64,000 nucleotides of DNA from Pristiophorus japonicus (lineage: Eukaryota). Under the pieces are notes generated by a model that worked only from the letters and a program-made list of their open reading frames with translations, was not told the origin of the DNA and searched no databases. Of the stretch, positions 25,473 to 58,036 are shown piece after piece. The position numbers and the translations under genes were made by a program. The first letter of the stretch is position 1, and each line of letters opens with the position of its first letter. Location: assembly GCF_044704955.1 (NCBI RefSeq), contig NC_091989.1:104346001-104410000 (forward strand), in the 5' to 3' direction.

Positions 25473-26658
25473 CTTCTCTTTGTCAACCTTCTTGAACATT
25501 CGAATGGTTTAGTGGTTGCAAGAGCGCTCTACCACAGTGTCCCCACCGCAATCAGCTCTCACCTGGACCTGACTGTTACCTGACAAGGACCAAGTAATTT
25601 AAGATACGGTTTGGTAGACAATAAGTAGAACTATTGTTCTAAGATCGGTTGCTGCATTGTAAATGCACTCTATCAAACATTTCAATTAAGTAAAATAAAT
25701 GTTATATTTAATTGTTATTTATTTCTTCAGTTGTTGAGCAAAGGTAAAGTTAGGGTGCAGAAACATCTAAACCTTTTGAACATTTATCGTTATCTGAAAG
25801 ACCACTTGGTCCATTCTAGCTCAGGCATCGAGAAACCTACACTCCCCTATAACAGCATTTAATTGCCTCTTAAATGATTTCAGAGACACCCCCGCCTCCC
25901 CCCCCCCCCCCCACCACCACCTTTCTCCCCATGAGTACCCCAAGTCCACTTCCATTATCGATCAGTCTCTGTTTAAGGAAAAGCTTTTCCAATTCTGTTC
26001 TCGGAATGGGTGTATTAATTACCTATTTTTAATTGCACTATACAAAGTAGCGGTGGGCTTTTTCTTGAACTGCTACAGTCTTTATGTGGATGGTTTGGTA
26101 GAGAATTCTAGCATATTGATGCAAAGTTGATAAAGGAATGCGATATATATCCAAGTCAGGGTAGTTTGTGACTTGGAGAAGAGCTTGGAGATAATTATGT
26201 TCCCAAGACGTTGCTGCTCTCATCCTGCTCGTTGGTAGAGGTCTAAGAGCTGGGATGTGTTGCCCAGGAAGAACTTCCTTATATCAGTCCGAAATTGGCT
26301 TGCATCCCGGTAGCCAGATAATAGATTTAGTTTACACAGCGTTTGGTAACGATCGTCAGCAGCCGGACTTTTAAACAGTCTGCCTGAAATTTCACTCAGC
26401 ATTGTATTTTCGTGTATTTGAAATAAACATTTGAAGCTGAGAACTGTAAGATATATGAGCTCTGCATGGATAGAATTGTTTTAATCAATGCAATAGTTCT
26501 ACTTATTGTCTGCCAGACCGTATTATATATTGCTTGGTCCTCGTCAGGTAACAGTCAGATCCAGGTGAGAGCTGGGTGCAGTGGGGATACGGTGTTGGGT
26601 AGAGCGCTCTTGCACCCACTAAAACATTCAAATGTTCAAGAAGCTTGACAAAGAGAAG
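25473..26658. repeat. Foldback element with ~165 bp inverted arms
   Basis: 25473-25636 is a diverged reverse complement of 26491-26658. Confidence 0.8.
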
Positions 26659-28283: not shown

Positions 28284-31200
28284 TGCCATGTATGTAGATC
28301 ACGTATACTAACTGTATAGTCACATAACGTGTGCCACCAGAGGGCACTGCGGTAGGAGACCTGAGGCTGCCCACCATGCTTGTGCCTCACTCTGGAGTAA
28401 CAATAAATAGGACTAAGGTCAAAACAGCTCAAGTACAATACTAGACCTTGTGGAGTCATTCATAAGAGTATTAAAGACAAAACAACTGGCGATGAGGTTA
28501 TGAACTTTCACACAAAAATCACTAACATTGGTGCATTAGAAAAGTTCTCAGAGGATGAAGATTGGGAAGCCTTTATGGAGTGGCTCAACCAATATTTTGT
28601 AGTAAACGACCTGATAGGCGATGGTCCGGCCAGGCTGGCAGATAAGCGCAGATCCATCCTGTTGACCAGTTGTGGGCCCACAGTCTACGGCCTCGTCAGG
28701 GACTTGCTTGCACCAGAGAAAACAATGACCAAGTCATTAAAGGAGCTGAAAGTACTAATTTGGGACCAAATCAAACTGAAGGAGAGCATCCTCACGGCCA
28801 GGCATCGATTTTCTACACACCGTTGCCCGAGGCCAGGAAATCGCGAAGTATGCTGCCGACCTCAGGAGGCTGGCAGGACACTGTGAATTCGGCGCATCCC
28901 TCATTGATATGTTGTGGGACATCTTTGTAATTGGCATCAGTCATGAGGCCCTTCTTCATAAGCTACTGTCTGCTGAAACAATCGTCACTCTACAGAAGGC
29001 CATCAGCATCAGCCAGGCATTCATGACCTCAAGCTGCAGCTCCAAGCAGATGATGACTTACTCTCAGGACTCAAACCCGGCAAGTACTTTAAATAGAATG
29101 ATGCCTTTCACAGGCAGAACTGTTGAATGTGAATCTGCCCAAGGCAGAGCGTACAGGGTTCCGAGTCCTTTAATGCAGAGTCCCCAATGGGTGCAAACAT
29201 AAGTCAAGTAGCACCATGCTGGCATTGCGGAGGTAATCACAGGGCTCATCAGTGTCAGTTCAGAGACTATGTGTGCAAAGGCTGCAGCACAAAGGGCCAC
29301 CTCCAACGAATGTGCAAAAGAGCTGTGACCCAACACATGGAAGAGGATTCAGCAGATGGCTATGAATCCAGCGCGGATTATGAGGAGATGGCTAGAGAAG
29401 CAGCTCAGTCCCAGGACGAAGTGTATGGAGTATATACCTGCACCATAGATGGTCCTCCAGTGATAATGAAAGTCGAGATAAATGGCATTCCAGACTTCAT
29501 GGAAGTGGACACGGGAACGAGTTAGTCAGTAAAGAGCCAGGAAGCCTTTGAGAGGCTATGGAACGATCAAGCTGAACGACCCAAGCTGGTCCCAGTTCAG
29601 GCAAAGCTGCGCACCTACACCAAGGAACTGATATCAGTTGTTGGTAGTGTGGATGTAAGTGTATCCCATGATGGCGTGGTGCACAATTTACCATTGTGGA
29701 TTGTTTCAGGTGATGGACCAATGCTACTTGGAAGAAGATGGACGGGGAAGATTCATTGGAACTGGGAAGACATCATCCCTCCAGCGATCGACGTCCCCGT
29801 GCTCAGAGGCAAGTCCCCACCTCTGTTGGACAAAGCACCGGAGAGCAGATCCATGCAGTCCTCGAGGCACAGGCCGCTCATGACAACTGCATGGTGATGA
29901 TCAGGCCGAGACGACCCAAATGCACCTTCCCGGTTTCAGTGGCAGGACTCCTGGGGAGACAGATTGGATCCGAGGGCGCCTTCACAGCTTCAGTGTCAGA
30001 ATCCCAGGGAAAGAAGATCGCAGCAGTTGACATCGTGGACACGGAAAAGTTGGTGTCCAAACCACGGGGTGCAGCGCTAATGGAGCAACGACATGTGGTT
30101 CCACGCAAAGAAGACGATTGGGGTAAAAGTAATAAGGCTATTTTAAAGGAAGCCAGCAACCCGCCATTTTTGAATGAACGGCTTGAAATTGGTAACCAAT
30201 GTAAAAGTCCAGCTGTAATGAGCAAAATGTTGTTGAGCGATTTGTCGGGTGCAAATTACAATCAGCCAATGTAACAGGCGAACACCTAATGATTGTATAC
30301 AGGTCCAGCGGGCTACCCAATGCTGTAGCCTGCATCCCCGGGACCAGAACGATGTATCATAAAGTGTGCTCACAGCTGACAGAAGTAGACAAGCCGCAGA
30401 GTAAACGATTCACAGAGAGCAGAGGCACTGGTAGCCTCAGATTGGTTTAACATTGCAGGCACCCGATGGCATAAACCGCCACAAGCTAGAAACAGTAAAC
30501 TGTGCCTATGCTCGCAGTTGGCTATCATCGCCCAACACCCGGGTGGAAAAGGAAGAGCCCACAAACCCACTCGCCACCACAGCAATGCCCAAGATTGAAG
30601 GGTCACCCACAATGGCTCCTCCGAACAGGACCTGAATCAGCCAGGATCCCAAACTAGAGAGTGATCACAACCGTGCCCTCAAGGAAAGCGAGTCAGCAGT
30701 CCCCTGCAAACTGCTAGATAAGACGAGGCAACCCCACCGTCACTTAGACGAAATGCTCACTCACTCAGACCACTTCCCAGGGAGCAGCAGCGACAATATG
30801 CAAATGAAAAACACAGGGATGTCACAGACACATCAGCTGTCTTTGGGCCTACCCGAAACTAGGAGTAATGACAAGAGCCCTGAGCTCCGGCAAGTCGAGC
30901 AAATTGAGCTCACCTCGCCCACAGACCCACTTGCATGGGGCGCCGCCACCAGAAGACCCGGATCTCATCTGGCCATGCTGGAACCAGACTGTGCTTGTGT
31001 ACTTGTACTGATATACCTGTACCGATCATGTAAATGTACCACACAAAAAGAAACGCAACTGTAATCCACCCAACAAATGTACCAAGATGTAAATGTAAAA
31101 CCCATGTGATGAACTTGAATGCAACTTGCATGTAATGGGCCATTAGCATGATCTCTGTGTGGTGGTGGGGGGGGGGGGGCAGGGGGGAGAATGGATTAGT

Positions 31201-31591
31201 CATGGACTCCAAACCAGAAACCACTGGAAACTCCACTGGCAACAAATCTCTCTACCAACCCACCCAAGCTAGAAGTGATCCTCCAATGGTCCACCAGGAA
31301 GAGCAAAGGCCAGATCGCCATCAATGTACGAGTCAATTTGCATAAAAAACTTGGGGGGAAGTGATGTCACGTATGTCATAACTGTTTAATCACATAATGT
31401 GTGCCACCAGAGGGCACTGCAGTGGGAGACATGAGGGTCACATGCATAGGTGTGCAGGGCTCAGTATAAAAGGCTGCCCACCATGCTTATGCCTCACTCT
31501 GGAGTTACAATAAATGGGACTAAGGTCACAACAGCTCAAGTACAATACTAGACCTCGTGGAGTTATTCATAAGAGTATTAAAGACATAACA
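28284..31591 (+). mobile_element. Ty3/Gypsy (Mag-clade) LTR element retaining gag and protease only
   Basis: LTRs 28284-28484 and 31365-31591 (TG...CA); 5-bp TSD CATAC on both sides; PBS TGGCGATGAGG (tRNA-Ser type); PPT before 31365; gag zinc knuckles (CWHCGGNH, CKGCSTKGHLQRMC); protease MEVDTG; no RT motif seen. Confidence 0.92.
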
Positions 31592-32077: not shown

Positions 32078-32170
32078 GTATTTTTTTTAGCTTGTTCTTT
32101 ATCTTTATGTCTCCCTTTCATTCTGAAACTCTCTGTATATAACTATAAAAAATGTTCAGTTTCTTAATAG

Positions 32171-32480
32171 TTGCTGCGGATATACTGTTTGAAGTAACAG
32201 CCCCTGAAAATACCAATTCGATCACTGGTACAAACATTGTCTTTAATTGCACATCATCTATTTTGCAATACAACTCTGATGTGAATATTTATTGGTGGAA
32301 AGTTGGCAAAAAGGAATTGATACAAGCAGACATCAGGAAACGATTTCTTACTGAGAAAGGAAACGCCTCCTTCGAACTCCAGACTATCAACGTCCAGGAC
32401 TCTGGAGTTTATCACTGCGGAGTTACACATCGGGGGAAACAGGTTCGTAAATGAAAATGGATCAAAGCTTGTTGTCACAG
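32171..32480 (+). pseudogene. Gene 2 exon 2: VJ-type V domain with a +1 frameshift
   Basis: GTNIVFNC, IYWW, DSGVYHC; exon is 310 nt against 309 in gene 1; removing one base near 32431-32440 restores HRGNRFVNENGSKLVVT|gtaaga, colinear with gene 1. Confidence 0.85.
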
Positions 32481-32882: not shown

Positions 32883-33005
32883 AAGAACAGAAGATCATAA
32901 GAAATAGGAGCATGAATAGGCCATTTGGTCCCTAGAGCCTGCTCCGCCATTCAATAAGATCATGGCTGATCTGATCATGGTCTCAGTTCCCCTTCCCTGC
33001 CCGCT
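32883..33005 (-). mobile_element. CR1 3'UTR stub abutting the broken ERV env
   Basis: cataagaaatagg...gatctgatcatgg CR1 tail, ending abruptly at ~33005. Confidence 0.75.
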
Positions 33006-34297
33006 AGCCTACGATGATCAGCTGTGCCACTACCAGGGCGTGAGAGAGGATGCGGTCCCAGGCTGGGACCTCTACATCCAACCCCCAATCCCACCAGGGC
33101 CTTGAATTTAAGTCAGCTATCTGGGCTCCCAATTTTACTGTTTTTTTGTTGTAGGGTGAAATAATGTTTCTGGGATTTTTGTGCTGCTTTGAACAGATCT
33201 GTCAGGTGCTCTGGTAAAATTGGAATGTGGTATCCGAAATGTGCTGCATAATTGTCCATGCTATTAATCATTGATGCCCCGGTGTTGAAACCGGTAAAAA
33301 CATCATTCCAGATCCCTCTTCTGTGTCTTTTCGGTTTGACGTTGTCTTTGGGTTGTAGACGGTACAGCAAAGTCTTGTTCAAATAGCCAAAATCGAGCTC
33401 GTAGAATGTCCTGAACATTTCTCGAAGGAGAGCCTGGTAGAGGCGTTCTGTCTCTTTTGGGCACCATTCACGAAGGTGCACCTCGGTAAGGTTTCGGATG
33501 ATGGAGGCCACAGTGTAGTGGCCCCCATGGTATAGCAGCTTGTCCGTGGGAACCAAACCAAACCGTACTCTGGTCCCTGGGTGGAGGTAGGGCATCTGTC
33601 CATGTCAGTTGGCTGTGGGCAGGGGCTGTCTGGGGTGTGCGCTTAACTCGGTGGCGTGGATGGAGCTGGGGTGGCTTACTATGCATGCGACCATGCTCCG
33701 GTCCCATCCCATCCCCTCCCCTTCATCCCACCACTGTCAGGAAAACACTATGGAGATGCCTGCCGGGCATATCTTCTCTGATCCCCACATGCACACATAC
33801 ACTCCTAACTCCGCCTCCCACCATTTATCCAAACACACACTCACTCCCCCCTGGGTGTCTGTGATGATCCGGTAGATGCTGTTGTCCAGTCTCTCCTAAT
33901 CTGCTGTCAGGTTTCCCATGTCCTTGCTCAGCTTCCTGAGCCACCATCACCTTCCCACTGGGATGTGCCCCTTACAGGTCAGGCGAACCCTCTTCCCAAC
34001 CACTACCCTAACCCGGGATGCGGTCACCTCAATGCTGGGGCAGGAGACTGATGCTTCCCCATACGTGACCCCGGGGTGGCTGGAGTAGCTAGTGGAATTG
34101 GACCCCAACCACCCTGGCCACCTTCCCCTGTATATGTGGGTATATATTGCGGTCCCCTCTACCCCTGGTGTCCCTTCACCTGTGGTTACAATCGGTGCCT
34201 GCCCCCCTGAGCATCCAAAAATAATGGCTTCTTCAGTCTCTCCCCGGTAGCCTATGCACATTCTGATGTAGGTGCACAGGAGCAGGATTTTCCTCAT
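33006..34297 (-). pseudogene. env: ERV env: signal-like N-terminus, Ig-like domain, RHRVKR and KRHRR furin sites, fusion peptide, internally deleted ectodomain, start of TM
   Basis: MRKILLLC at 34297; ORF 33113-33595 KRHRR|GIWNDVFTGFNTGASMINSMD; frameshifted C-terminus QIADLNSRPWWDW...ILSHALVVAQLIIVG; pyrimidine-rich splice acceptors at ~34441-34467. Confidence 0.75.
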
Positions 34298-35570
34298 CTG
34301 TGGTTCCTCTTCTGAAAGACAAAACCTCATTTGGTTCAAAAACCCTGAGCCCCCTGGCTCATCCCTCCCCCATTTTCCACTCTGTCTACACCTCACATTA
34401 CCCCTGCACGGGTTTAAACTGTGTGTGCCTATCGGTCTGACTGCAAATCACAATTTTACTGTGGAAGTCAAGGGATTTCAATGAATAAACACTTAAAACA
34501 ACAAACAAACCTTACACAAAAGAGGAAGTGAGAGAAAAAAAGAAGTCCAGGCTCCCTATCTTATTGGCTCAAAAGCCTCACTGTTATACTCCCTATATTG
34601 CAGAGGCCACCTGAGCCCCACTACACGAGAGAAATCTTTATATATATATCTGTACACACCTACTGCTCTCCTTTTTAACCTGCTTGCCACCCTTCCCGGG
34701 TGGCTGTGCTAATCCCTGAGATGCTCCTTGGTTTTCCTTTTTTGCGGGGGAATGTAGGGGGGAGACCACCTCTCCTTTGGCCTCTTGGGCCGGACCGACC
34801 TTAGCGGCCCCTCTGTCTCCCCTGCCAAAGTGTCCGCCGAGCTTCGGGTGGTGCTTACTGGGCTGGTACAGCCCTTCACCCTCTCCAGGGATGGCTCACT
34901 GCCCTTGGGAGCAACGAAAATTCCCTTCACTGCCGGGGACTCCCGAATCCTCTGGGGGCTTTGAGTTGTACAAGGGTTCCACCCGAAACCACTCGCAGCT
35001 GATACTCTCACAGCGTTTCCTCAGTACTTCTAGGGACCACTCACTACTGGGACCCGCCGCCACCCCTCTCTCCTGTAGGCTCTGGGCTGTCTGTACCAAA
35101 AGCTAGGCTATCCCCAACAGGCTCCTCACTGTTCGTGGCCCCTCCCGCCGGTACAACCCCTTCCCTGTCAGGAGACTCTCGTTATTCCAGGGACCACTCA
35201 CTGCTGGGACCCGCCACCACTATCTCGCTTGCAGGCTCTGGGCTGTCCGCACCGAAGGCTAGACCAGCCCCAACAGGCTCCTCACTGTTGGCGGCCCCTG
35301 TCTTCAGTACAACCCCTTTCCCGTCAGGAGACCTTGGCTGCGGGGTCACATCCAGTGATTGGCTGCTGCCCTGCACGGCCCTTTTCCCCTAGTACCTCTC
35401 AGGAAAGTAAAACAGGCTGCTTGGGACGGTGGCACCCTTGGCTGCGGAGTCTGAGTGGATCTCCTAACGGGTGGAGGTGAGTCCTCATCCCATATGTAAG
35501 GTGGGAATCCCCCTTCCTGTGGGTCCCAAATCTGTGGGTAATTTGTACCTGTGAAGCAACTCACTGCTCC

Positions 35571-38500
35571 TTATGGTGGGATCGGTGGGGCTGCAGTGAT
35601 GGGCTGGGGGCCTGGGCTTCCCTTCAGGATTATCCCTCCGGGCTGCCCTTTCCCACGAGGTTTTGCCTTGTTGGGGTTAACCAGTTTACATTGGTTAATG
35701 TGAAACCATTTAACCCGGCGGGGCATCTTGACCGTGCATACCACGGGGCTTGCCTTGTCGACAATGCTGTAAGGCCCCATGTATAGTGGCTCAAAGGCTC
35801 TCACCCTGGCAAAGTTGCGGATCATGACCTGGTTCCCCACCTGCCACTCATGGTGTTTGCTCGGTTCCAGCAGCAATCGGTTGGTCTGATGCTGCTTCCC
35901 CATGTTAGTGGCCGCCTGCCGGTGAATCTGCTTGAGGTGCTCCAACAGACTCTTGGTAAAGCGGTCCCTATTCATCTCGATTACCTGAGCTTCCGTCAGG
36001 ACCGAGGCAAGTACATGGGTGGGGGTTCGCATGGCTCTTCCAATCATGAGCTCGTATGGGGAATACCCCGTGCTTTTCGACTGGCTGGCCCGGATCCCCA
36101 CCAAAACCAGGGGCAACCTCTCCACCCACCTCTGCGCAGAATCCCCAGTCTCCTTCCTGAGTTTTTCTTTCAAGGTCCTATTCATACGCTCCACTAGCCC
36201 TGAGGACTGGGGGTTGTAGGCGACGTGCCACTTCCCCTCAATCCCCAGCACCTTAATGGTTGCCTGCATGATCTGTCCCGTGAAGTGGCTCCCCCGGTCG
36301 GACTCCACGTACAGTGGAAGTCCCCACCTGGAGAATACCTCCCTAACCAATATCCTGGCGGTCCCCGCTGCTGTGGCTGTTCGGCAAGGGAAGGCTTCAA
36401 CCCACTTTGTGAAAGAGTCCACCAAAACCAGGCAGTACCGGTACCCTCCCTTAGCCACAGGTAGGGGCCTCTATGTAATCAATTTGTATTGATTGCCATG
36501 GTCCCTCTACCCTTCTTGCATGTCCTAGAGACACCTTTCTTTTCTGGGGATCTGGATTATTGGTTGCACAGACAAGACAGTTCGCACAAAATTCACGGGT
36601 GTCTTCCTGGAGCTGGGGCCACCACCCGACCGTTCCACTCATTGTCAGGTGACCTCCGGTCCGGGGTGTCCAACTCCAGGGCCTGCGTGGGCTTGCTGAA
36701 GGAACTCCCTCTGGTGCCGCTAGGGCACTATCCACTGCTCTCCTTTAAACAACATCTTCTTCCTAACATGGATGCCTGTGCCCCCGTACGGTCCTTTGAC
36801 CTTTTCTCCTGCAGTCAGCTTGTCCATGACGGACTTGAGGACGGGATCTCGCGCCTGTACCTGCTGGAGGTCCGGGGCCAAAGCCACCCCTGTGCTCCCT
36901 TGTGTCCCCTGTCCGCCCGAGATAGCTGCTATGGGGCCTGCCTCGAGCGGGTTCCACTTGGTTCCCGTTCGGGCTGCCTCTTTGGCCAGTTGATCTGCCT
37001 TTTGGTTCCCTGCAGCCCTGGGCCCATGTTTCTAATGGGCCTTTACTTTGTGAATGCAAATTTCTGCCCCGGTCCACACTGCTTTATGGCCAGGGGCTTA
37101 CTGTCTGCAGATGTATACCTGCGACGGGACCAGATGGCTAGGTACTCCGTGCAGGCATTGCAGGTGAACATACTATCTGAAAAAATAGTATAGGGCTGTG
37201 GGAATTCATCGGGGTGGGTGACTACATACATGACTGCCGACAGTTCAGCATGCTGGGCGCTCATGGTGTTTGAGAGCTTTATGGCCCTGGCAATGGCTAC
37301 CTGGGGATCATAAATCCAGCACCCTGTGAGCCTTTCCCCTGCCAACACCATGCTGGACCCGTCAACATAGATCTCCCGGCCGTGGGGATGGATCCCTGCC
37401 CGGAGCCCTATGTCCACATCCCAGACCCCCTCAACGGAGCAATGGTGGGCTTTCCCTGGGTATAGCATGTTGGCTGCTAGTCGGGGCTCACACATCCCTT
37501 TTACTCTCAAATCCATCTGTGAGAGCAGGAGGGTCCAGCAAGCAATGCGTGCGCTGCTCACTGTCCCATCCTTAATTCTCCCATCCAGCAGCATCTGAGT
37601 GGGGGTGTGATGAGTGAGGAGGGTGATTGGGGACACTCCTGTAAACACCTGCAACCACTTCACAGCCAAGTGGGTGGCCAGCAGATGCCTTTCACAGTTT
37701 GAGTAACCCCTCTCAACCTCAGTGAGGACCCTGGAGGAGTAGACCACCGGCCTCAGCTGGCCGTGTCGCTGTTGCCTCAGCACAGGAGTTAAGCTATCCC
37801 CGTTGGCTGCTACCTCCAGGAAAAATTCCTCGCCCTCGTCTACCGCTCCCAGGGCCGGAGCTTTCTGCAGGTCTCCCTTGAGGTGGGTAAACGCTGCATC
37901 ACAGTCCTCATCCCATTCCCACTCCACGCCTTTGCACAGGAGTTGAAGTAGGGGGGCTGCAATGGCTGCGTAATCCTCAATGAAGTCCCTGCAGTAACCG
38001 GTCAGACCCAGGAACGACCTCACCCCAGTAACTGTAGTCGGAGCCAGTAATTCCTGAACTGCCCTCCTCTTAGCCTCATCAATGGCTCTCTCCCCTGCCC
38101 GCACAGTCAGCCCCAGGAGATTTTACCTCTGTCTGGCCGATCTGTGCTTTCTTAGGGTTTGCTTTAAAACCCTCCTTGTGCAGCAGTCCCAACAGCTCTG
38201 CCAGCCGGGGACCGTGCTCTTCCTCCGAATCGGAGAATAGCAGCAGATCATCCACGTACTGGACTAGCTGTCTCGGTCTGCTGAACTCTTTCAGTTAGTT
38301 GGCCATACACTGATGAAAAATGCTCGGACTGTTGTGGAAGCCCTGGTGAAGACAGTTCCAGGTATACTGCTGTCCTTTGAATGTAAAGGCGAATTTGTAC
38401 TGGTCCTCCCACCGCAGCGGGATGGACCAGAACCCATTCGAGATGTCCAGCACCATGAAGACGGCTGCGGACTCGGGGATGGCTGCGACTAGGTTGGCTA

Positions 38501-39260
38501 CGGCTGCCACTGTGGGTGCACAGGCAGGGATATTTTTATTGAGGACTCGGTAGTCCACCGTGGCCCTCCAAGAATTGTCCGTTTTCCTAACTGGCCAAAA
38601 TGGAGAGTTCACATGTGTGGCTATTGGTCTCAACACTCCCTGTCTGACTAGAGATCCCAATGCAACCTCTAGGTCTGCCTCAGCCTCCCTGGGAAAATTA
38701 TACTGCTTCTGGGGCTTAGACATGGGGTCCCCATCTACTCTGACCTCGACCCCATTTACCCGTCCACAGTTGTTTGTGCTTATGCATGGCAAATGCCGCC
38801 AGGTTGGCCCACACAAAAGCCTGATAAATCAACGCGGTGCCGTCTACCAGAGCGCCGAGGTCATATCCCTCCTTCGGCTTTACAGTGCAGAGGGAACCCT
38901 TCCCCTGCTTCCCCCTCCCCGGTGTCAGCTCCGCCCCACATACAGTGCTTCCTCAGGTCGACCAGAACTTTCTGGCCGCTGAGGAAATCTGCCCCGAGGA
39001 TGCCTTTATCCACTCCCTCCCACGACAGAAGGACACACTTTCACATGGTGTGGAGGATGCCTATGTGTATCTGCAGTGGTTTGGAGAAGAAGCTCTCGCG
39101 TTCTTCTCCAGTGAAGCTGGTTAGGCAGTAGGGGATCACACTGGATAGGGGTGAGGTGGTCGGGTCGTCTACATGAACCAGGGTGCATGAGGCCCCTATG
39201 TCCAGCAGATACTCCCCCCGGACCCCCTCAACCACCATCATGACACGCATCATATGTGAC
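35571..39260 (-). pseudogene. pol: ERV pro-pol (protease, RT, tether, RNase H, integrase) with stops and frameshifts
   Basis: LLDIGASCT; LDISNGFWSIPL; QGFHNSP; QYVDDLL (~38241-38261); tether RPVVYSSR; RNase H IYVDGSS/SAQHAEL/FSDS; IN CANCLVC, QIDYI, VDSFTKWVEAFP, SDRGSHF, SSGLVERMN. Confidence 0.92.
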
Positions 39261-39299
39261 CGGGCAGAGGTACACGGGTTCCTTGAGTGGGTGTTGGTC

Positions 39300-41106
39300 T
39301 GAGCCTGAGGGACTTCTCCCCCGGTCACAGCTGCAACCTTCCCAATCTGGGTAAAGAGTGCCTGCAGAGCCGCGAGGAGACCCTCAAGTGGGGCGGCAGG
39401 GCTGGGCACAGCTGGCTAGGGAGGGCTTGCGGCCGCGGGGACTGAGGCTGAGGTGGGGGCCTGTGGATCTCTCTTTTCCTGCCTCGGAGCCCGGCATTCC
39501 CTCTTCATGTGCCCTGTCTCCCTGCACCCGTAGCAAACCACCTCTCTGCCTGCCTGCCAATTCCCTTCTTGTCTCCACTCTCTCTTATCAGAGCCAGGGC
39601 GGATCTCACACACCTTCCCCTTGGTGGGTTTCTCCCTCCCGATTCTGCCATTGCAAAAAGAGAGGGTCAGCTGCCTCAATACCGTCTCCTCAGTGGCTTG
39701 GGGGTCTCTGAAATCTGGGCGCGCAACTCCGGTAGGCTGTTTGCCACCAGTGCACACAGCCAGCGACCACGTCGGTGTGCATCCAGCTGGGTTCGGTCCA
39801 AATTCCCCTCACTGGCTCCCCCATACACTGACCACAGTCGATCAGCGAACGCCCGGGGGTCTCCCCAGGTCTCTGGACAGTGGCCTGTACCCGGTCGAAC
39901 GGAAAGCCATTGTTAAACCCCATGGCCTCCAGGATCTCCTCCTGGAGAGCGGCCACTGTTCGCTGACCCCTCTTGCTCTCAGCAGAGAGAGCCTGACACA
40001 GGGCTGGGTCCAGTGAGAACAGGAGCAATTTGCTCCATTCGGTCTCATAGCAGTCATTTATGTCTCCTACCTGCTCTACTTCCATAAAGTGGAGAGAGGG
40101 GTCTCCGTTTCGGGTAAGTTTATTCACTGGGCCACCATCTGCCGCAGCTGGGTCGCACTGTGGGGAAGCACGTATTCGTTCTGTAGGGGACTCTCAGCCT
40201 GACCCACTGCGGGTGGTCCGAATCTACTCTGCCTGATGGGCACATTGGGGCTGGTCCCGGAGGTTTAGATTCCAGCATTTCGCCCTGCCTCTCCTCTGGG
40301 ATCCCCAATGGGGCTGTGGGAGAGGGCCTGTAGGATTCTTCCTCCCTATCCTCCTCCCCACAGCCTGTTTCACTATGCTCCCCACTCCGCACCTCGGCTG
40401 GGCTGATAAGGCACACCACTCCTTTACTGGGTGCCTTGCTTTCAGCCCAGCCAAGGGCTTTTGCCTCAGCTAGGGCCAGAGCTTTGGTGTCGGGCCGGGT
40501 GGGGATTCGAGTCTCGGGCACTTCCAGAGGTTTTGCTCCGGCTAGAACAAGGACTGCTTTGGCTTCAGCCAGAGCCAGGGTGAGCCGATCAATTTGTTCC
40601 TGAAAGGAACGATGATCCGCCTCTGCCCTGATGTGGCACGCCTGAAGCGCAGCCTGTAGCTGGAGACTCTTACCCTCTCCCAACATTCCCTGGTTCTAAG
40701 CCTGGACAAGTTCCTCCTGCAGTCCTCCGGCATAACCTTTTCCCTCAGTTACCTGGGACTGAAGGCACTCCCTGTGGTTGCGATAGCTTTCTCCATCTCT
40801 CTCTCGTTCCTGCCTCTCCCACTTTAAATCCTGATCCAGCTTTTCCCTTTCTTTGCTGGTCTTTACTCGCTCCTCTCTCTGCTCAGCTAACTCTGTCTGC
40901 AGGATATCTACCTGCCTGTCCAAGACCTGTATTTGCTTCCAAAAGCAAATCAGCCACACTGCCTTTCCCACTGATCTTTTATGATCTTTACTCTGGGTTC
41001 ACCTGGCTGCTGCGTCCTCAGGCCATTCAGCCCTCAGCAGCACCTGCACCCACTTCCTTGAGCAGTTTATCCTTGCTGTTGCACACCTAGCAATCCTACC
41101 CTCCAT
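39300..41106 (-). pseudogene. gag: ERV gag (N-terminal coiled coil, capsid-like region, CCHC knuckle)
   Basis: In-frame pieces from MEGRIARC (41106) through QVLDRQVDILQTELAEQREE...; zinc knuckle CYGCRETGHMKREC in ORF 39416-39757. Confidence 0.8.
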
Positions 41107-41159: not shown

Positions 41160-41177
41160 GTCCCTTCATGGTCGCCA
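41160..41177 (-). promoter_or_regulatory. Primer binding site, tRNA-Arg(TCG) type
   Basis: TGGCGACCATGAAGGGAC one nt after LTR end; 17/18 match to the recalled vertebrate tRNA-Arg-TCG 3' end GTCCCTTCGTGGTCGCCA. Confidence 0.8.
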
Positions 41178-41178
41178 T

Positions 41179-42384
41179 TGTAAGGGGAGCTTGGGGTGTG
41201 AGTTCGAATCCACACCCACCTGGGGTTCTGTACGTGCGATTTATGAGGATGGGTGAGTAATGAGGCACCAGACACAGTGGGTAAGAGTACAAAATGGCTA
41301 ATGTTATTTATTTAGAATAGTAAACACCAAGATAGAGGGCATAGGAAGAGGTCATAAATAGCAGTAATGGCACAATCTCACTCAACAACACGAAAAATCT
41401 TGCAACAGGGAAGGGGAAAATAAGAGGTTAAAACATTCCACTCACACACAACCACACTTCCCACTTCCACCCTTCTTACCAATTCCTATCCTAAATTGAG
41501 TCTGTGAGGGGGTTTGGGCTATACTCAAAATCCTATCAACTCCGGGGTTCTGGGGGCACTTATTTCAGATCGGGGTGCCTCTGGGGTGGGTTTTACGTTG
41601 TTGGTCAGTTCGGTTTTCCTCCTCGATGTTGCGTCGGTTTCTTCTCTTTGCCTTTCGGTTGGCTCCTAAGTAAAAAGCTGCTGGAGTTAAGCACACCTTC
41701 CCCAGAGCGAGGGCCCTGTGAAAAGCTGACTCAGCTCCCAAAAGCTGACTCCAACCTCCAAAAGCTGACTTTCACTGCTCCAAAAGCTGACTCCCACTGC
41801 TGGTTCTGTAGCTCCTATCTTTGTATCTAATTTAGTTCTGGCCTTTCCGCGCTCAAACTCAGTTGGTGGTCCATTGTATAAGTTTGGGCGGGGAGATAGC
41901 TTTGAATATTTAATCAGAAGATGTCACAGGTACAGGTAGGTGTGAGGACAGGGGTATTGTTTCAGTGCACATTGGTGCCTCAACGTCTGCTGGTCCATTG
42001 TAACAGTCCTGCGAATCAATCGGTTTGGGCCTCCTCTTTTATGGGCCATTAGGTAGATGATGGTCCACATTCATTAGAGGTGAGTCATATTTTCAAACTG
42101 GGCCGGGTAGTCGCCATTGGTTCAGGATCTCCCCGCTTCAGGCCCGACTCGACCCCTGATTGGCCTGCCAGAATGCACTTTTCCCCCATTGGCCAGTACC
42201 TCTGTCTCGCTTGTGAGCCAGACTCCACAATGTCGGTATCCGCCCACACATTTCCCAGCCTGTCTGGTCTGAGGATTTTACTTGGCCAAAAATGTTAATT
42301 TAAAATATATAGAATGATCCCATCTTATTTCTTGTCCTTAGGGTGTTCCAATAAAAATGCGGCCATGGTTTTTCGAACCTTACA
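41179..42384 (-). repeat. ERV 5' LTR (~1206 bp)
   Basis: Perfect 7-bp terminal inverted repeat TGTAAGG...CCTTACA; minus-strand AATAAA at 41307-41312; adjacent PBS. No second LTR remains to confirm the boundary. Confidence 0.72.
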
Positions 42385-45888: not shown

Positions 45889-46002
45889 ATTAGTATTGGT
45901 CAACTAATATCCCACGGCCAAAATCCAGGTTGCGGATTATAATTTTTTTTCGACTTTGCCCTCACTGTAATTTGACATTGGCCATATTTGTTGAATCATA
46001 TC

Positions 46003-49000
46003 TGTTATGTATGAATAAAGAGGCTGACTAGATACTGTGAGCTCAAAGTAAAGTGTGACCTTAGTCTTTTATTGTAGGTCTCCAGAGTGCCTCTCCAGCC
46101 TGTGAGGCCTCCTTAAGTACAGGTGCTCCCAAGAGATTGTGGGATCCCTTGGGACTGCAGGGGGTGAGCCCTCTGGTGGCTACACAAGGTATTTACAGGT
46201 TTACATATATAACAACACTCCCCCCCAAAATCAATAGTGTAACTATTTACAAGGTGAGTCGATCTGGGGCCTTTCTTTCCCTGGTTAATCATCTCGGTGC
46301 AAATGCTGGTTTTGGTGAATCGTTTGTTGGGCCCTCGCTGGGCTGCTGTGTAGCTAGCCTTGCTGGGCTGCCTGGTGTGGTGAGTCATGCTGGGCTGCTG
46401 CTGGTGATGGGTTCTGCTTTGTGGTCAACTGGGGTGTCGGTTGCCACTGGTGTGTGTGTTGGGGGTCAAAGAAGTTAGGGTACAAGGTGGGTTGCTCTGG
46501 ATAGTCCGTGAATCTGAGTTTGGTTTGGTCCAAGTGTTTCCGGTAGATGAGTCCATTTGAAAGTATGACCCTAAATACCCTACTCCCCTCTTTGGCCACA
46601 ACAGTGCCGGGAAGCAACTTCGGACATTGTACATAGTTCAGCATAAATACAGGATCATTGATTTTAATTTCGCGTGACACATTTGCGCAATCATGATATG
46701 TACTTTGTTGAAGCCACCTGCTCTCTACCTGTTCATGTAGATCAGGGTGGACTAACGAGAGCCTTGTCTTAAGTGCCCTTTTCATGAGCAGTTCAGCGGG
46801 TGGAATCCCAGTGAGCGAGTGGGGTCTCGTGCGGTAACTAAGTAGGACTCGTGATAGGTGAGTCTGCAGTGAGCCTTCAGTTACCCTCTTCAAGCTCTGC
46901 TTGATAGTTTACACTGCTCTCTCTCTGCCTGACCATTGGATGCTGGTTTGAATGAGACAGATGTAACATGTTTGATCCTATTACGGGTCATGAATTCTTT
47001 GAACTCGGTACTGGTGAAACATGGCCTGTTGTCGCTCACAAGGACATCAGGCAGACCGTGCGTGACAAACATGGCCCGCAGGCTTTCAGTGGTGGCAGCA
47101 GACGTGCTTGCCAACAATATCTCATATTCAATCCATTTGGAGTACGCATCTATAATCACAAGGAACATTTTATCCAAAAACGAGCCTGCATCGTCGACAT
47201 GGACACTGGACCACGGTTTGGAGGGCCAAGACCATAAACTTAGTGGCACCTTCCTGGGTACATTGCTTAACTGTGAGCACGTGTTACATTTGTGCACGCA
47301 GGACTCTAAGTCCGCATCGATACCGGGCCACCACATGTGGGATCTGGCTATCGCTTTCATCATTACAATTTCTGGGTGAGTGCTGTGGAGATCACTAATG
47401 AAAGTGTCCCTGTCCTTCTTGGGGACCACAACTTGATTGCCCCACAGAAGGCAGTCTGCCTGCATAGACATTTCATCTTTGCGCCGCTGGAACGGCTTTA
47501 TCTCTTTCTGCATTTCCAATGGGACACTGGACCAGCTCCCGTGAAGCACACAATTTTTTAGTAAGAGCAGTAAGGGGTCCTGGCTCATCCAGGTTCTAAT
47601 CTGTCATGCTGTAACGGGTGATTGTTCCCTCTCGACTGCTTCCATTACCATTACTAAGTCTGCGGGCTGTGCCATTTCCACCCCCGTGGTGGGCAATGGC
47701 AGCCTACGGAGAGCGTCGGCACAGTTTTCTGTGCCTGGCCTGTGATGGATGGCATAGCTGCATGCGGACAACTCTGGATGTGGACTGAAGCTTTTGTATT
47801 TATCCCCTTACTTTCAAAAAAGAGGGATATCAGTGGATATGGTCAGTTTCCAATTCAAATTTGAGCCCAAACAGATATTGATGCATTTTCTTTACCCCAT
47901 AAGCACACTCTAACGCTTCTTTTTCAATCATGCTGTAGGCTCTCTCAGCCTTAGAAAGACTTCTGGATACATAAGCAACCGGTTGCAATTTCCCAGATTC
48001 ATTAGCTTGTTGCAATGCACACCCGACCCCATATGACGACGCATGACATGCTAGTAGCAAACGTTTACATGGATCATATAACACAAGCAACTTGTTTCAG
48101 CATAACAATGTTCTAGTTTTTACAAAGGCATTTTCTTGGCTTTTACCCCATACCCATTCATCCCCTTTACACAGTAAGGCATGCAGTGGTTCTAACAGTG
48201 TGCTGAGTCCCAGTAAGTAGTTACCAAAGTAGTTCAGGAGCCCTAGAAACAACTGCAGCTCCGTCACATCTGTGGCCTTGGTGCGTTTTCGATTGCCTCT
48301 GTCTTCGAATCACTGGGCCTGATGCCATCCGCCGTGATTCTTCTCCCCAGGAACTCCACTTCAGATGCCAGGAAAACGCACCTTGAGCATTTTAACCTGA
48401 GCCTCACGTGGGTGACTCGACTAAGAACCTCCTCCAGGTTCTGCAGATGCTCGACTGTGTCCCATCTGTAACCAAGATGTCATCCTGGAAGACCACCGTG
48501 CGCGGGACCGACTTCAGTAAGCTTTCCATGTTTCTCTGGAATATCACCGTGGCTGATCGAATCCCAAACGGGAATCTATTGCAAATGAAGATACCTTTTT
48601 GCGTGTTGCTGCAGGTGAAGCCCTTCGATGATTCCTCCAGCTCCTGCATCATGTAGGCTGAGGTCAAGTCCAGCTTCATAAACAGTTTTCCTCTTGCCAG
48701 CATCGCAAATAGGTTGTCTGCCTTTGGTAGTGGATATTGATCCTGCAGGGAGAAACGATTGATAGTTACTTTGTAATCACCACAGATTGTGATGGTGCCG
48801 TCTCCCTTGAGGACTGGAACAATCGGACTGGTCCACTCGTTGATTTCGATCGGCGAAATGATGCCCTCTCATTGCAGCCAGTCCAGCTCGATGTCCACCC
48901 TCTCTCTCATCATGTATTGTACTGCTTTCGCCTTGTGATGGATGGGTCGCGCCCCCGGAATTAGGTGGATCTGCACTTTTGCTCCTTGGAACTTCCCGAT

Positions 49001-50330
49001 GCCTGGTTCGAAGAGCGAGGGGAACTTGTTTAAGACCTGGGCACATGAAGTGTCGTCAATGGATGAGAGCGCTCGGACGTCGTCCCAGTTCCAGCGTAAC
49101 TTTCCCAGCCAGCTCCTGCCGAGCAGCATGGGACCATCGCCCGGTACTACCCAGAGTGGTAGCTTGTACACTGCTCCATCATAGGAGACCTTTACAATAG
49201 CACTGCCGATTAAGGGAATCAATTCCTTTGTGTAAGTTCTCAGTTTAATGCGAATGGAAGTCAGGACTGGCCTTGAGGCCTTGCTGCATCACAATTTATC
49301 GAAAGTCTTTTTGCTCATAATGGACTGGCTCGTGCCCGTTTCCAGCTCCATTGAAACCCAGAATCCATTTAATTCAACCTTCAGCATTATCGGGAGACAC
49401 TTTGTGGTAAATGTGTGCACCACATATACCTCTGCCTCCTTGGTCTGAGGCTCTGGTTCATCGGGATCCGCCATGCATCGGTTCTCTTTTGCAACATTGT
49501 GGTTTGCAGGATTAGCAGGATTTGCAACTCGCCGGCACATATGTTGTCGGTGTCCTATTGTTCCACAGCCCTTGCAAATGTATCCTTTGAAGCGACATGA
49601 ATTAAAATGATGATCACCCCCACAGCACCAACAAGGTGTTAATGGACTTGCATTCATCACCCTTGATGGTGGACTCTGAGACATCTGCAGACATGCAGCT
49701 GCAGGCAAGTGAGGCCTGCCCTGTACTTTGTCATTTGAAAACAACATCACTTTGTTCACAGTACTTGTAGCAGCACTCGTGTGCTGAGAGATTTGCTTGG
49801 TATTGTCACTGATGGCAATGAACGCGTGGGCTATTGCTATGGTTTTACTCAAGGTTAGGGGCTTTACAGTCAAAAGTTTGCAAAGTATCACTTCATGGAC
49901 AATGCCAAGTATAAAGAAGTCCCTGAGCATGTGCTCCAAATGTCCTTCAAATTCGCAATGTCCTGCAAGGCATCTTAGCTCGAGAACATAGCTCGCCACT
50001 TCCTGGCCTTCAGATCTTTTGTAGGTGTAGATCCGGTACCTCGCCATCAGAGCGCTTTCCTTCGGGTTCAAATGCTCCCGGACCAGTGTGCACAAATCAT
50101 CATACGATTTCTCTGTGGGTTTGGCTGGAGCAAGCAGATCTTTCATGACGCCATGTGCACGTGTGGGATCACATCCCATCCTTGTCGCCAGCTGTTATGT
50201 ATGAATAAAGAGACTGACTAGATACGGTGAGCTCAAAGTAAAGTGTGACCATAGTCTTTTATTGCAGGCCTCCAGAGTGCCTCTCCAGCCTATGTGGCCT
50301 CCTTAAGTACAGGTCCTCCCAAGGGATTGT
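46003..50330 (-). mobile_element. Ty3/Gypsy (Mag-clade) LTR retrotransposon, gag-pro-RT-RH-IN, decayed
   Basis: 3' LTR 46003-46214, PPT 46215-46226, truncated 5' LTR 50193-50330, PBS 50173-50190 (tRNA-Ser); LDLTSAY, FQDDIL, ASSYGVG, IIDAYSKW, ASNGQAE. Confidence 0.93.
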
Positions 50331-53429: not shown

Positions 53430-56400
53430 GAGGCAGAGTCCAGAGAGCAGAGTCGGCAGAGGCCTATAAAAGGCCCACACTCAAGGAGTTTGTGAGTCGG
53501 AGAGGCGGGAGCCCAAGGAGCAGAGTTGGCGGAGGCCTATAAAAGGCCCACACTCGAGGAGTTCGGGAGTCCAGAGAGCAGAGTCGGCGGAGGCCTATAA
53601 AAGGCTCACACTCGAGGAGTTCGGGAGTTCGGGAGGCCCAGCCGGTGCAGCTGCAGCAGGGTGAGAAGGCAAAAAAGAAGTGGAAAGAAATCGAAAGTTG
53701 ACGTCACAGCCAAGGAGGTAAGTGATTGGCTGGTGATTGGTGAGTAGTTTTTCTTTTTTCTTTTCTTTATCAGCAAGTAATCTTTAGCATTGTTGTTGCC
53801 AAATTAAGTGAATCTAGGGGTTAAGATATGGTAGGACAGCTCGGACACGTGTTATGCTCCTCCTGTAATATGTGGGAAGTCAGGGACGCTTCCGGTGTCC
53901 CTGACGACTACGTGTGCGGGAAGTGTATCCGCCTCCAGCACATGACGGACCGCGGTGTGGAATTGGAGCTGCAGGTGGATTCACTCTGGAGCATCCACGA
54001 TGCTGAGAATGACGTGAATAGCACGTTTAGCGAGTTGGTCTTACCGCAGGTAAAGGGTACACAGCCTGCTAGTGAATGGGTGACCAACAGAAAGAGCAGT
54101 GCAAAGAAGGTAGTGCAGGGGTTCCCTGCGGTCATCCTCCTGAAAATAGATACACCACTTTGGGTACTGTTGAGGGGGATGACTCAGCAGGGAAGAGCAG
54201 CAGCAGCCAAGATCATGGCACCGTGGGTGGCTCTGCTGCACAGGGGGGCAGGGAAAAGAGTGGGAGAGCTATAGTGATAGGGGATTCGATTGTAAGGGGA
54301 ATAGAGCCGCGTTTCTGCAGCCACAACCGAGACTCCAGGATGGTATGTTGCCTCCCTGGTGCAAGGGTCAAGGATGTCTCGGAGCGGGAGCAGGACATTC
54401 TGAAAAGGGAGGGTGAACAGCCAGTTGTCGTGGTGCATATAGGTACCAACGACATAGGTAAAAAAATGGGATGAGGTCCTACGAGACGAATTTGGGGAAC
54501 TAGGAGTTAAATTAAAAAGTAGGACCTCAAAAGTAGTAATCTCAGGATTGCTACCAGTGCCACGTGCTAGTCAGAATAGGAATCGCAGGATGGCTCAGCT
54601 GAATACGTGGCTTGAGGAGTGGTGCAGAATGAAGGAATTCAAATTTCTGGGACATTGGAACCGGTTCAGCGGGAGGTGGGACCAGTACAAAACGGACGGT
54701 CTGCAGCTGGGCATGACGGGAACCAATGTTCTCGGGAGAGCGTTTGCTCGTGCTGTTGAGGATGAGTTAAACTAACATGGCAGGGGGATGGGAACCTATG
54801 CAGGGAGACAGAGTGAAATAAAATGGAGGCAGAAGCAAAAGATAGAAAGGAGAATAGTAAAAGTGGAGAGTAGAGAAACCCAAGGCAAAAAACAAAAATG
54901 GCCACATGACAGCAAAATTCTAAAGGGGCAAAGTGTGTTAAAAAGACAAGCCTGAAGGCTCTGTGCCTCAATGCGAGGAGTATTCGGAATAAGGTAGACG
55001 AATTAACTGCGCAGACGGCAGTAAATGGATATGATGTAATTGGCATCACGGAGACATGGCTCCAGGGTGACCAAGGCTGGGAACTTAACATCCAGGGGTA
55101 TTCAACATTTAGGAAGGATAGGTAGAGAGGAAAGGGAGGCAGGGTGGCGTTACTGGTTAAAGAGGAAATTAATGCAATAGTAAGGAAGGACATGAGTTTG
55201 GATGATGTGGAATCGGTATGGGTGAAGCTGCGGAATACCAAAGGGCAGAAAATGCTAGTGGGAGTTGTATACAGACCACCAAACAGTAGTAGTGATGTTG
55301 AGGACAGCATCAAAGAAGAAATAAGGGACGTGTGCAATAAAGGTACAGCAGAAATCATGGGTGACTTTAATCTACATATAGATTGGGCTAACCAAACTGG
55401 TAGCAATGCAGTGGAGGAGGATTTCCTGGAGTGTATTAGGGATGGTTTTCTGGACCAATATGTCGAGGAATCAACTAGAGAGCTGGCCATCCTAGACTGG
55501 GTGATGTGTAATGAGAAGGGACTAATTAGCAATCTTGTTGTGCGAGGCCCCTTGGGGAAGAGTGACCATAATATGGTAGAATTCTTTATTCAGATGGAGA
55601 GTGACACAGTTAATTCGGAAACTAGAGTCCTGAACTTAAGGAAAGGTAACTTCGACGGTATGAGGCGTAAATTGGCTAGAATAGACTGATAAAGGATACT
55701 TAAAGGGTTGATGATGGATAAGCAATGGCAAACATTTAAAGAGCACATGAATGAACTTCAGCAATTGTACATCCCTGTCTGGAATAAAAATTAAACGGGG
55801 AAGGTAGCTCAACCGTGGCTAACAAGGGAAATTAAGGATAGTGTTAAAACCAAGGAAGAGGCATACAAATTGACTAGAAAAAGCAACAACCCTGAGGACT
55901 GGGAGAAATTTAGAATTCAACAGAGGATGACTAAGGGTATAATTAAGAGGGGGAAAATAGAGTATGAGAGAAAGCTTCCAGGGAACATAAAAACTGACTG
56001 CAAAAGCTTCTATAAATATGTGAAGAGAAAAAAATGAGTGAAGACAAATGTAGGTCCCTTGCAGTCGGATTCAGGTGAATTTATAATGGGGAACAAAGAA
56101 ATGGCAGACCAATTGAACAAATACTTTGGTTCCGTCTTCATGAAGGAAGACACAAATAACCTTCCGAATGTACTAGGGACAATGGAACTAATGAGAAGGA
56201 GGAACTGAAGGATATCCTTATTAGGCAAGAAATTGTGTTCAGGAAATTGTTGGGATTGAAGGCCGATGAATCCCCGGAGCCTGATAATCTGCATCCCAGA
56301 GTACTTAAGGAAGTGGCCCTAGAAATAGTGGATGCATTGGTGATCATTTTCCAACAGTCTATCGACTCTAGATCAGTTCCTATGGACTGGAGGGTAGCTA

Positions 56401-58036
56401 ATGTAACAACACTTTTTAAAAAAGGAGGGAGAGAGAAAACGTGTAATTATAGACTGGTTAGTCTGACATCAGTATTGGGGAAAATGTTCGAATCAATAAT
56501 TAAGGATGGAATAGCAGCGCATTTGGAAAGCAGTGATAGGATCGGTCCAAGTCAGCATGAATTTATGAAAGTGAAATCATGCTTGATGAATCTTCTGGAA
56601 TTTATGAGGATCCCCTGCCGCAGTGAGTTGTTCATGCCAGTTCATTGGATATATTCAAGAGGAAGTTCGATATGGCCCTTACGGCTAAGGGGATCAAGGG
56701 GTATGGAGAGAAAACAGGAATGGGGTACTGAGGGAATGATCAGCCATGATCTTATTGAATGGCGGTGCAGGCTCGAAGGGCTGAATGGCCTACACCTGCA
56801 CTATTTTCTATGTTTCTATGTAACTAGCAGAGTAGACAAGGGAGAACCAGTGGATGTGGTGTATTTGGACTTTCAAAAGGCTTTTTGACAAGGTCCCACA
56901 TAAGAGATTGGTGTGCAAAATCAAAGCACATGGTATTGGGGGTAAAGTACTGATGTGGATAGAAAACTGGTTGGCAGACAGGAAGCAGAGAGTCGAGATA
57001 AACGGGTCCTTTTCAGAATGGCAGGCAGTGACTAGTGGAGTGCCGCAGGGCTCAGTGCTGGGACGCCAGCTCTTTACAATATACATTAATGATTTAGATG
57101 AAGGAATTGAGTGTAATATCTCCAAGTTTGCAGATGACACTAAACTGGGTGGCGGTGTGAGCTGTGAGAAAACAGGTTGACTTGGACAGGTTAGGTGAGT
57201 GGGCAAATGCATGGCAGATGCAGTATAATGTGGATATATGTGAGGTTATCCATTTTGGGGGCAAAACACAAAGGCAGAATATTATCTGGATGGCGGCAGA
57301 TTAGGAAAAGGGGAGGTGCAACGAGACCTGGGTGCATTGGTTCATCAGTCATTGAAAGTTGGCATGCAGGTACAGCAGGCGGTGAAGAAGGCAAATGGCA
57401 TGTTGGCCTTCATAGCTAGGGGATTTGAGGGAAGGAGCAGGGAGGTCATACTGCAGTTGTACAGGGCCTTAGTGAGGCCTCACCTGGAATATTGTGTTCA
57501 GTTTTGGTCTCCTAATCTGAGGAAGGACATTCTTGCTATTGAGGAAGTGCAGCGAAAGTTCACCAGACTGATTCCTGGGATGGCTGGACTGACATATGAA
57601 GAAAGACTGGATCAACTGGGCCTTTATACACTGGAGTTTAGAAGGATGAGAGGGGATCTCATAGAAACGTATAAGATTCTGATGGTACTGGACAGGTTAG
57701 ATGCGGGAAGAATGTTCCCGATGTTGAGGAAGTCCAGAACCAGGGAACATAGTCTTAGGATAAGGGGTAGGCTATTTAGACCTGAGATGAGGAGAAACTT
57801 CTTCACTCAGAGAGTTGTTAACCTGTGGAATTCCCTACCTCAGAGAGTTGTTGATGCCAGTTCATTGGATATATTCAAGAGGGAGTTAGATATGGCCCTT
57901 ACAGCTAAAGAGATCAAGGTATGGAGAGAAAGCAGGAAAGGGCTACTGAGGGAATAGTCAGCCATGATCTTATTGAATGGCGGTGTAGGCTTGAAGGGCT
58001 GAATGGCCTACACCTGCACCTATTTACTATGTTTAG
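53430..58036 (+). mobile_element. Full-length CR1 LINE (5'UTR repeats, ORF1 zinc finger and SGNH esterase, ORF2 APE-RT), inactivated
   Basis: ORF1 CSSCNMW..YVCGKC and IVIGDSIVRG/VHIGTND; ORF2 pieces 55144-57957; 3'UTR to ~58036. Confidence 0.92.
56612..56820 (+). mobile_element. Short CR1 3' end nested inside the RT of the full-length CR1
   Basis: RT reads LLEF..gagga, then 3'UTR and tttctatg tail, then resumes taactagcagagtagacaag (VTSRVDK). Confidence 0.8.

Follow-up and report, generated by a model that had tools for sequence, protein, structure and literature searches.

The window analysed here, a stretch of 64,000 nucleotides from the sawshark Pristiophorus japonicus, carries on its minus strand a decayed provirus that belongs to a large and very abundant family of shark endogenous retroviruses (ERV). 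Its parts are listed in Table 1, together with the other features of the window. The provirus is truncated at about 33005-33009 and has no 3′ LTR; this end lies ~550 bases from the second of two host V-set exons. The tRNA-Arg(TCG) gene matched by the primer-binding site comes from the same genome, and the zinc knuckle of gag was recognised above the Pfam cut-off (zf-CCHC). The pyrimidine tract and AG that precede env are present in three subfamilies of the family, and are likely, from their sequence and place, to form a splice acceptor.

Table 1. Features of the window (position 1 is its first letter)
Feature	Position	Strand	Remarks
Provirus, decayed ERV copy	42384 to ~33005	-	Order 5′ LTR, primer site, gag, pol, env
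5′ LTR, ~1.2 kb	41178-42384	-	93% over 1210 nt with the sequence downstream of a sibling locus's env
Primer-binding site	41160-41177	-	3′ end of host tRNA-Arg(TCG), one mismatch
gag, broken, bounds approximate	39416-41106	-	Coiled-coil N-terminal part and CCHC zinc knuckle
pol, broken by stops and frameshifts	35571-39415	-	RT (YVDD), tether, RNase H, integrase
Pyrimidine tract and AG, likely splice acceptor	34298-34325	-	Directly upstream of env start
env start, signal-like peptide and conserved ~65-residue arm	34043-34297	-	Arm 34043-34250
Ig-like (V-type motif) domain of env	33740-34042	-	Ig_3 E 8.6e-4, below cut-off
B-strand cysteine (GxxVxLTC)	33974-33976	-	GKRVRLTC; C in 86/91 copies
C-strand tryptophan pair	33941-33946	-	W in 80/91 and 82/91 copies
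F-strand ExGxYxC motif	33791-33811	-	ELGVYVC, Cys 33793-33791; C in 90/91 copies; DxGxYxC in two other subfamilies
Proline-rich linker and F2-like part of surface subunit	33329-33739	-	Stop at 33607
RHRVKR, out of env frame, not the env cleavage site	33639-33656	-	
Furin-type site RHRR, in frame	33317-33328	-	RHRR/GIWND
Fusion-peptide-like segment	33254-33316	-	Ends at junction of ~310-codon internal deletion, which removed the fusion core
Second heptad region and membrane anchor	33005-33253	-	Frame shift near 33145
First host V-set exon	7674-8003	+	Ordinary V-set domain, Pfam V-set above cut-off
Second host V-set exon	32149-32451	+	Ordinary V-set domain, Pfam V-set above cut-off
Second LTR-type element	46002-50330		139-base direct repeats (94%) 4190 bases apart
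Integrase frame	46890-47603	-	Inside the second LTR-type element
Element like a non-autonomous DNA transposon	25473-26658		Inverted repeats of 61 and 104 bases (88-93%) around ~850 bases
Direct repeats	28309-28484 and 31379-31591		~3.1 kb apart, 81-94% alike
RT fragments, probably LINE	4149-4739, 8926-9882, 56160-56888, 62675-63313	both	

The preliminary description of this DNA had reported an immunoglobulin (Ig)-like motif on the minus strand, in frame with the methionine at 34297 and read through two stops. Its three blocks, GKRVRLTC, WW and ELGVYVC, were all located, with 61 residues from cysteine to cysteine, and so were the two stops, at 33949 and 33898. The env frame, which runs from Met 34297 to an end at 33115, has two further stops, one at 33739, just after the Ig-like domain, and one at 33607. 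The motif pattern occurs once in the window and in none of 200 block shuffles, a weak argument since the pattern was chosen post hoc. The furin site had been assigned to RHRVKR, and this had to be corrected, as RHRVKR and the Ig-like stretch are not read in the same frame; a cleavage motif that is in frame is found ~140 residues past the domain. The junction of the internal deletion behind it was located by comparison with longer copies. We conclude that the env copy of the window is dead, and that no fusion-competent protein is made from it.

To which retroviruses the element is related was examined with its RT. Against solved structures, a set that lacks the snakehead retrovirus (SnRV), the best match was foamy virus RT (E 2e-34), followed by MLV (3e-23) and Ty3 (1.5e-19). 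Identities counted by hand over ~136 positions were ~51% with SnRV, ~40% with HERV-L, ~34% with ZFERV-2 and ~32% with Loki-Xla, the reference rows being those of the Wang and Han supplement (PMC7947760; here and below, statements from the literature refer to the accessible parts of the works cited). RNase H motifs are also shared between SnRV and the window element. From these hand-counted identities, we call the element a probable SnRV-like ERV. SnRV uses a tRNA-Arg primer and has a coiled-coil Gag, both in agreement with the shark family; its Env differs by a cytoplasmic tail of 136 residues, versus ~20-25 in the five open copies of the shark family described below. SnRV-like ERVs are known in cartilaginous fish, including lineage I of the elephant-shark CmiERV, and the SnRV-like clade Huo spans all vertebrates (PMC4422223, PMC6001957, PMC12193657).

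Two other assignments were considered and are disfavoured. A foamy virus, in spite of the best structural match of the RT, does not agree with the zinc knuckle in gag nor with the single furin site in env: foamy Gag is described without a Cys-His box (PMC5210030), and the shark Gag has one. The tether and RNase H found in the window pol are common to all retroviruses, and for that reason are not diagnostic of a lokiretrovirus. Lokiretrovirus pol does have a dual RNase H (PMC7947760), but Loki-Xla gave the lowest RT identity of the four references, and none of 6 cartilaginous-fish genomes was positive for lokiretroviruses in that study.

Searches of the host's own genome (5.9 Gb) were made with the front part of env, keeping the best 150 of ~8,000-8,600 first-look candidates, and with the fusion core, keeping the best 150 of ~17,500; these figures are not copy numbers. 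The sampled loci, grouped by their identity to the queries, fall into seven subfamilies, and the Ig-like stretch is present in all of them. It was found upstream in 27 of the 30 loci picked by their fusion core (one being the query's own locus), and the three loci without it are also without the rest of the front end. Eleven further loci out of 11 contain it as well. No sister env devoid of the Ig-like stretch was seen among the matches listed, that is, the best ~150 candidates of each genome search. The preliminary description is thus borne out in placing the Ig-like domain in the N-terminal region of env, and this holds for the whole family. Among proteins, the named matches to the front part came from sawshark, skate and whale shark (the latter covering only part of the domain), and those to the fusion part additionally from catshark; one protein labelled as sawshark is an exact match to the present genome. 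The named matches of word-index protein searches were restricted to cartilaginous fish; the protein searches also returned one unrelated match, of 1055 residues (E 4e-5).

The copies closest to the window, ~93% identical to it in DNA (29 matches), are full of stops and frameshifts. Their fusion core is absent in 30 cases out of 30, and in 29 copies the second heptad and the anchor directly follow the fusion peptide. With a dN/dS of 0.47-0.70 among copies, this subfamily appears to be close to neutral decay. It would have spread after the deletion of the core, therefore without a fusion-competent env of its own. A skate gene model of 516 residues (P0003) contains the arm, the Ig-like stretch, F2, the furin site, the first heptad, the second heptad and the anchor. 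It is core-less like the window subfamily, with a different junction, which points either to a parallel deletion or to an intron of the gene model. Two other gene models, P0004 and P0005, in which pieces of env are joined with a zinc-finger gene and a Niban-like gene, are probably annotation chimeras.

Open env frames were found in younger copies. By hand count, 35 of the best 150 matches lie in stop-free frames of at least 750 codons, a number in which some small contigs may be duplicates. Of six such stretches examined, five contain a single frame of 777-780 codons, and the sixth shifts frame before the anchor. The question of whether other copies are open and continuous with env is thus answered positively for 5 of the 6. 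Their product starts with a signal-like peptide, followed by the conserved arm, the Ig-like domain (in its DxGxYxC version), the proline-rich linker and the F2-like part; then come the furin site, a heptad, a Cys-rich core, a second heptad, a hydrophobic anchor near residue 735 and a short tail. The arm has a single conserved Cys and no family match, and was modelled with a pLDDT below 50. In all five open copies, R-X-[KR]-R occurs once in the ectodomain, at residue 327, well past the Ig-like domain; a minimal RXXR inside the Ig-like stretch is present in only 3 of the 5. With one frame and a single furin site past the domain, the Ig-like domain is part of the surface subunit, and not a separate or separately cleaved protein. 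This runs counter to the preliminary description, which had seen it as a cleavable N-terminal module or a separate secreted protein.

The order of parts in these copies (F2, basic cleavage site, fusion peptide, heptad, Cys-rich core, heptad, TM) is that of an F-type fusion protein. The neighbours of the env body in a language-model atlas are Baculo_F/Gypsy (0.93-0.94) and Fusion_gly (0.91), with 192-203 shared features. The gamma-type CX6CC was found in the membrane subunit of none of the five open copies. Neither Pfam PF00523 nor PDB sequence searches with the whole env or a profile of the fusion part returned an F match. We conclude that the env body is probably an F-type fusion protein, a prediction that draws on one atlas search and on motif order. 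Several blocks also align by eye with lokiretrovirus Env from the Wang and Han supplement (PMC7947760). Lokiretrovirus Env is related to paramyxovirus and pneumovirus F, and shares with the shark Env a signal peptide, one RXKR site, a fusion peptide, a coiled coil and a TM (PMC7947760). It differs by the Ig-like domain of the shark family: the accessible text of PMC7947760 makes no mention of immunoglobulin, Ig domain or V-set, and one lokiretrovirus Env of its supplement begins directly with the F2-like part.

We then asked whether the domain is an Ig fold, using 91 copies, i. e. 100 loci minus 6 duplicates and minus 3 without the Ig-like stretch. The B-strand Cys, the C-strand Trp and the F-strand [DE]xGxYxC stand at V-type spacing; the cysteines and tryptophans pointed out in the window are conserved in the other copies (counts in Table 1), and the Gly four residues before the F-strand Cys is kept in 88 of the 91. 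With Pfam, Ig_3 matched 34 of 40 copies (best E 3.4e-5) and no other family matched more than one copy. The curated cut-off was not reached in any of the 40, the best score shown being 23.8 bits against 30, and V-set and I-set, the families that had been suggested for this check, gave no match to the viral copies. The skate protein P0003 had no Pfam match. A profile of the 40 copies retrieved 18 PDB sequences at E<=10, of which 16 are Ig-superfamily proteins, with CRTAM at positions 11-101 (E 0.012) and FCRL5 for the first half (E 0.006); PDB searches with the whole env or with an N-terminal profile gave nothing useful. In the atlas, the neighbours of the Ig-like stretch include ig, V-set and I-set clusters at 0.88-0.90, the top three being unnamed clusters.

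Structure prediction gave a mixed result. The first AF2 model has eight strands in V-type order, and at least 47 of the 50 matches listed for it are Ig-superfamily chains (Z 5.0-5.7, rmsd ~3, 67-88 residues). A model of the domain alone, whose alignment consisted of own-genome copies without rows from other species, was no better: it was matched best by beta-sandwiches, among them phage tail proteins (best Z 5.1), and Ig V chains appeared between them at Z ~4. Structural Z values below 8 may reflect merely a common arrangement. Both models are of low confidence (mean pLDDT 43.5 and 50.4, no residue above 70 in either), and Foldseek found no match at E 0.001.

Of the 100 copies, 66 have a pair of extra cysteines, one three residues ahead of the B Cys and the other fourteen residues ahead of the F Cys, at positions that we take, by V-domain numbering, to be cross-strand neighbours. 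Younger copies have a CxxC at residues 107-110. This CxxC, and the fact that every single Ig test stays below its threshold, could suggest that a region rich in Cys and Trp, such as the surroundings of a gamma-type CXXC isomerase motif, resembles Ig by chance. Such a motif is ruled out, as its CX6CC partner is absent from the membrane subunit and the first extra cysteine is an Arg in 26 of 29 window-type copies. Several different methods moreover agree on Ig, which makes a chance likeness extremely improbable; on this sequence and model evidence, the stretch very probably has an Ig fold.

Between subfamilies, the dN/dS of the Ig-like domain is 0.06-0.21 (12 of 15 pairs, the other 3 being saturated), to be compared with 0.05-0.10 for F2 (6 of 15 pairs), 0.10-0.17 for the fusion core (6 pairs) and 0.07-0.24 for the arm, which is as conserved as the Ig-like domain. 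These ratios, obtained by NG86 on individual copies (at most 8 per group), are rough, because dS between subfamilies exceeds 1; they indicate that the Ig-like domain was under purifying selection. Trees of the Ig and F2 stretches recover the same subfamilies for 14 of 18 chosen copies, the 4 others having been left out as they had no full match in one part. By this sequence record, the domain predates all the subfamilies sampled and is common to the skate elements. The youngest subfamily has a dS of 0.015-0.039 among copies.

Capture of a host Ig domain had been put forward in the preliminary description, and is not established, since no donor gene reached significance. No host Ig protein was among the 9 matches of a HMMER search of 1.84 billion representatives. 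The request for the closest host Ig-superfamily protein led to CRTAM (E 0.012), FCRL5 being matched over part of the domain only (E 0.006), and to no significant match with one host gene family. The donor hunt went through 30 host C2-set loci, then CADM-like and CRTAM-like exons, and none was significant by the family profile: the V exons of CRTAM-like and CADM-like type in the host genome gave E values of 0.36 (the CRTAM-like exon) to 3, or no score. In these genes the V domain is divided between two exons, and scoring half-domain exons makes this a weaker test. CRTAM may thus be kept as a weak lead, by sequence likeness. The ultimate source of the domain is probably a host Ig-superfamily V domain, acquired before the subfamilies split. 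A more specific scenario, that an ancestor captured the V domain of a nectin-like receptor of the CRTAM/CADM kind, fused it to an F-type protein and used the natural ligand of the receptor for entry, seems to us a long shot; were it true, no older case would be known of a virus making its attachment head from an adhesion domain of the host, and none before it on an F-type scaffold. The host exons, presumably of CRTAM and CADM type by their likeness to the CRTAM PDB row, lie near 201.59 Mb (L162/L172) and near 205.05 Mb (L154/L169), and share their contig with a nectin-like exon (L129).

F-type fusion proteins have their cell attachment supplied by a partner protein or by an added domain. We propose, with moderate confidence, that the family carries an Ig V-type domain inside the surface subunit of its predicted F-type Env, probably as the cell-attachment head. 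Env would be translated from a spliced RNA, enter the secretory pathway and be cut once by furin. Like F2 on F1, the N-terminal product, made of the arm, the Ig-like domain, the proline-rich linker and the F2-like part, would remain attached to the fusion subunit. Projecting from the trimer, the Ig-like domain would bind a host surface protein, replacing the separate attachment protein needed by paramyxoviruses, like the inserted receptor-binding domain (RBD) of foamy Env. The attachment role is probable by analogy with two cases. Gamma-type Envs have N-terminal RBDs of Ig fold that are followed by a proline-rich region, and in one case the RBD is an IgV of SIRP-like type captured from a host (Hotzel 2024); foamy Env, which has no separate attachment protein, differs from F chiefly by its added RBD (PMC11468914). 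The likeness with foamy Env lies in the predicted layout, an F-type scaffold with an added RBD (PMC11468914); in foamy viruses, however, the RBD is inserted within the surface subunit and measures ~330 residues, and Env has a leader peptide and is cut twice by furin (LP, SU, TM), unlike the single ectodomain furin site of the open shark copies.

One observation speaks against a receptor-binding role: the domain is as conserved as the fusion core, which is not always expected under immune pressure. The same constraint would suit a viral beta-sandwich that caps or stabilises the prefusion trimer and is Ig-like by old descent or convergence. So would its many tryptophans and extra cysteines, the donor searches without a match and, in the models, the poor folding of the domain alone; F proteins, besides, already contain a domain II of Ig-superfamily fold (PMC11468914). 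We nevertheless hold a structural cap to be unlikely. The domain has the host-type B-Cys/C-Trp/DxGxYxC signature, and the canonical B-F disulfide is absent from the long-diverged viral RBD-C class (Hotzel 2024); it also lies outside the F core, ahead of the proline-rich linker, and the lokiretrovirus Env that starts with its F2-like part (PMC7947760) does without it. Another role would be that of an immune-modulating mimic, for instance of CRTAM or another nectin-like receptor, displayed on virions and infected cells, with attachment located elsewhere. The best full-length sequence match is indeed the CRTAM V domain, and captured IgV domains can retain ligand-contact residues (Hotzel 2024). 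This match is weak, however, and weaker still for the host's own CRTAM-like exon, and no other attachment gene was seen between pol and env, nor, apart from the short arm, any further addition to env, so that we judge a mimic to be rather improbable.

The idea of a separately cleaved or secreted Ig protein survives in one form, in which the core-less subfamily would shed the arm, the Ig-like domain and F2 as a soluble receptor blocker, to the benefit of the host or of the element. All 30 copies of the window subfamily do keep the front half without the core, and the skate gene model is core-less too, with its other junction. But RHRVKR is out of frame, there is one furin site only, the near-neutral dN/dS and the many stops and frameshifts of the window subfamily are those of decay, and the skate layout may come from a gene-model intron; a shed decoy is therefore highly unlikely. 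The attachment head on the surface subunit is the reading that we retain.

Ig heads on retroviral Env, and the capture of host IgV by retroviruses, are already in print. The closest case is Env-Dbi, or 'RBD-C SIRP-like' (Hotzel 2024, bioRxiv 10.1101/2024.03.17.585361), with an N-terminal IgV that has extra cysteines, as here, and the canonical B-F disulfide that the motif predicts here too, and that is read as a host-captured RBD. Env-Dbi is an alpharetrovirus-like gamma-type Env of mammals whose SIRP donor is plain by BLAST, whereas the shark family has an F-type body and no donor was detected. The RBD-C of MLV/FeLV and HERV-Pb(1) (Hotzel 2024) also places an IgV-like head before a proline-rich region on the surface subunit, but with gamma-type fusion machinery and a modified fold without the B-F disulfide. 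A search of the accessible literature found no account of an Ig domain carried by an Env of F type or by that of a shark ERV. Searched by term, the accessible texts of PMC7947760, PMC4422223, PMC11468914, PMC9040795, PMC5512871, PMC5210030, PMC10699275, PMC12193657, PMC13709493, PMC6001957, bioRxiv 2023.10.26.564294 and Hotzel 2024 contain no such head on such an Env. If true, an Ig head in this place would show that F-type Envs have solved attachment in yet another, independent way, and if a donor were found, host IgV would have been captured by a retroviral env for the second time. For snakehead-like shark ERVs, of which the literature, in its accessible part, mostly reports pol only, the present data also offer an initial view of env, and suggest that F-type Env reaches beyond foamy viruses and lokiretroviruses. 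Its small size and its occurrence in open copies make the fold and the binding of the domain directly testable.

Finally, the two V exons of the window were compared with the viral stretch. The preliminary description had seen little similarity between them and had not implied a local capture, and it was right on both points. One comparison gave no alignment and another E 0.18, and with the viral family profile one exon scored E 5.5, the other being absent at E<=10. With no meaningful similarity to either exon, an origin of the domain from the V exons of the window is ruled out. A simple pattern search found no recombination signals at these exons, which look like exons of the NKp30/NCR3 type; a PDB search with the first of them returned antibody and VNAR chains only.
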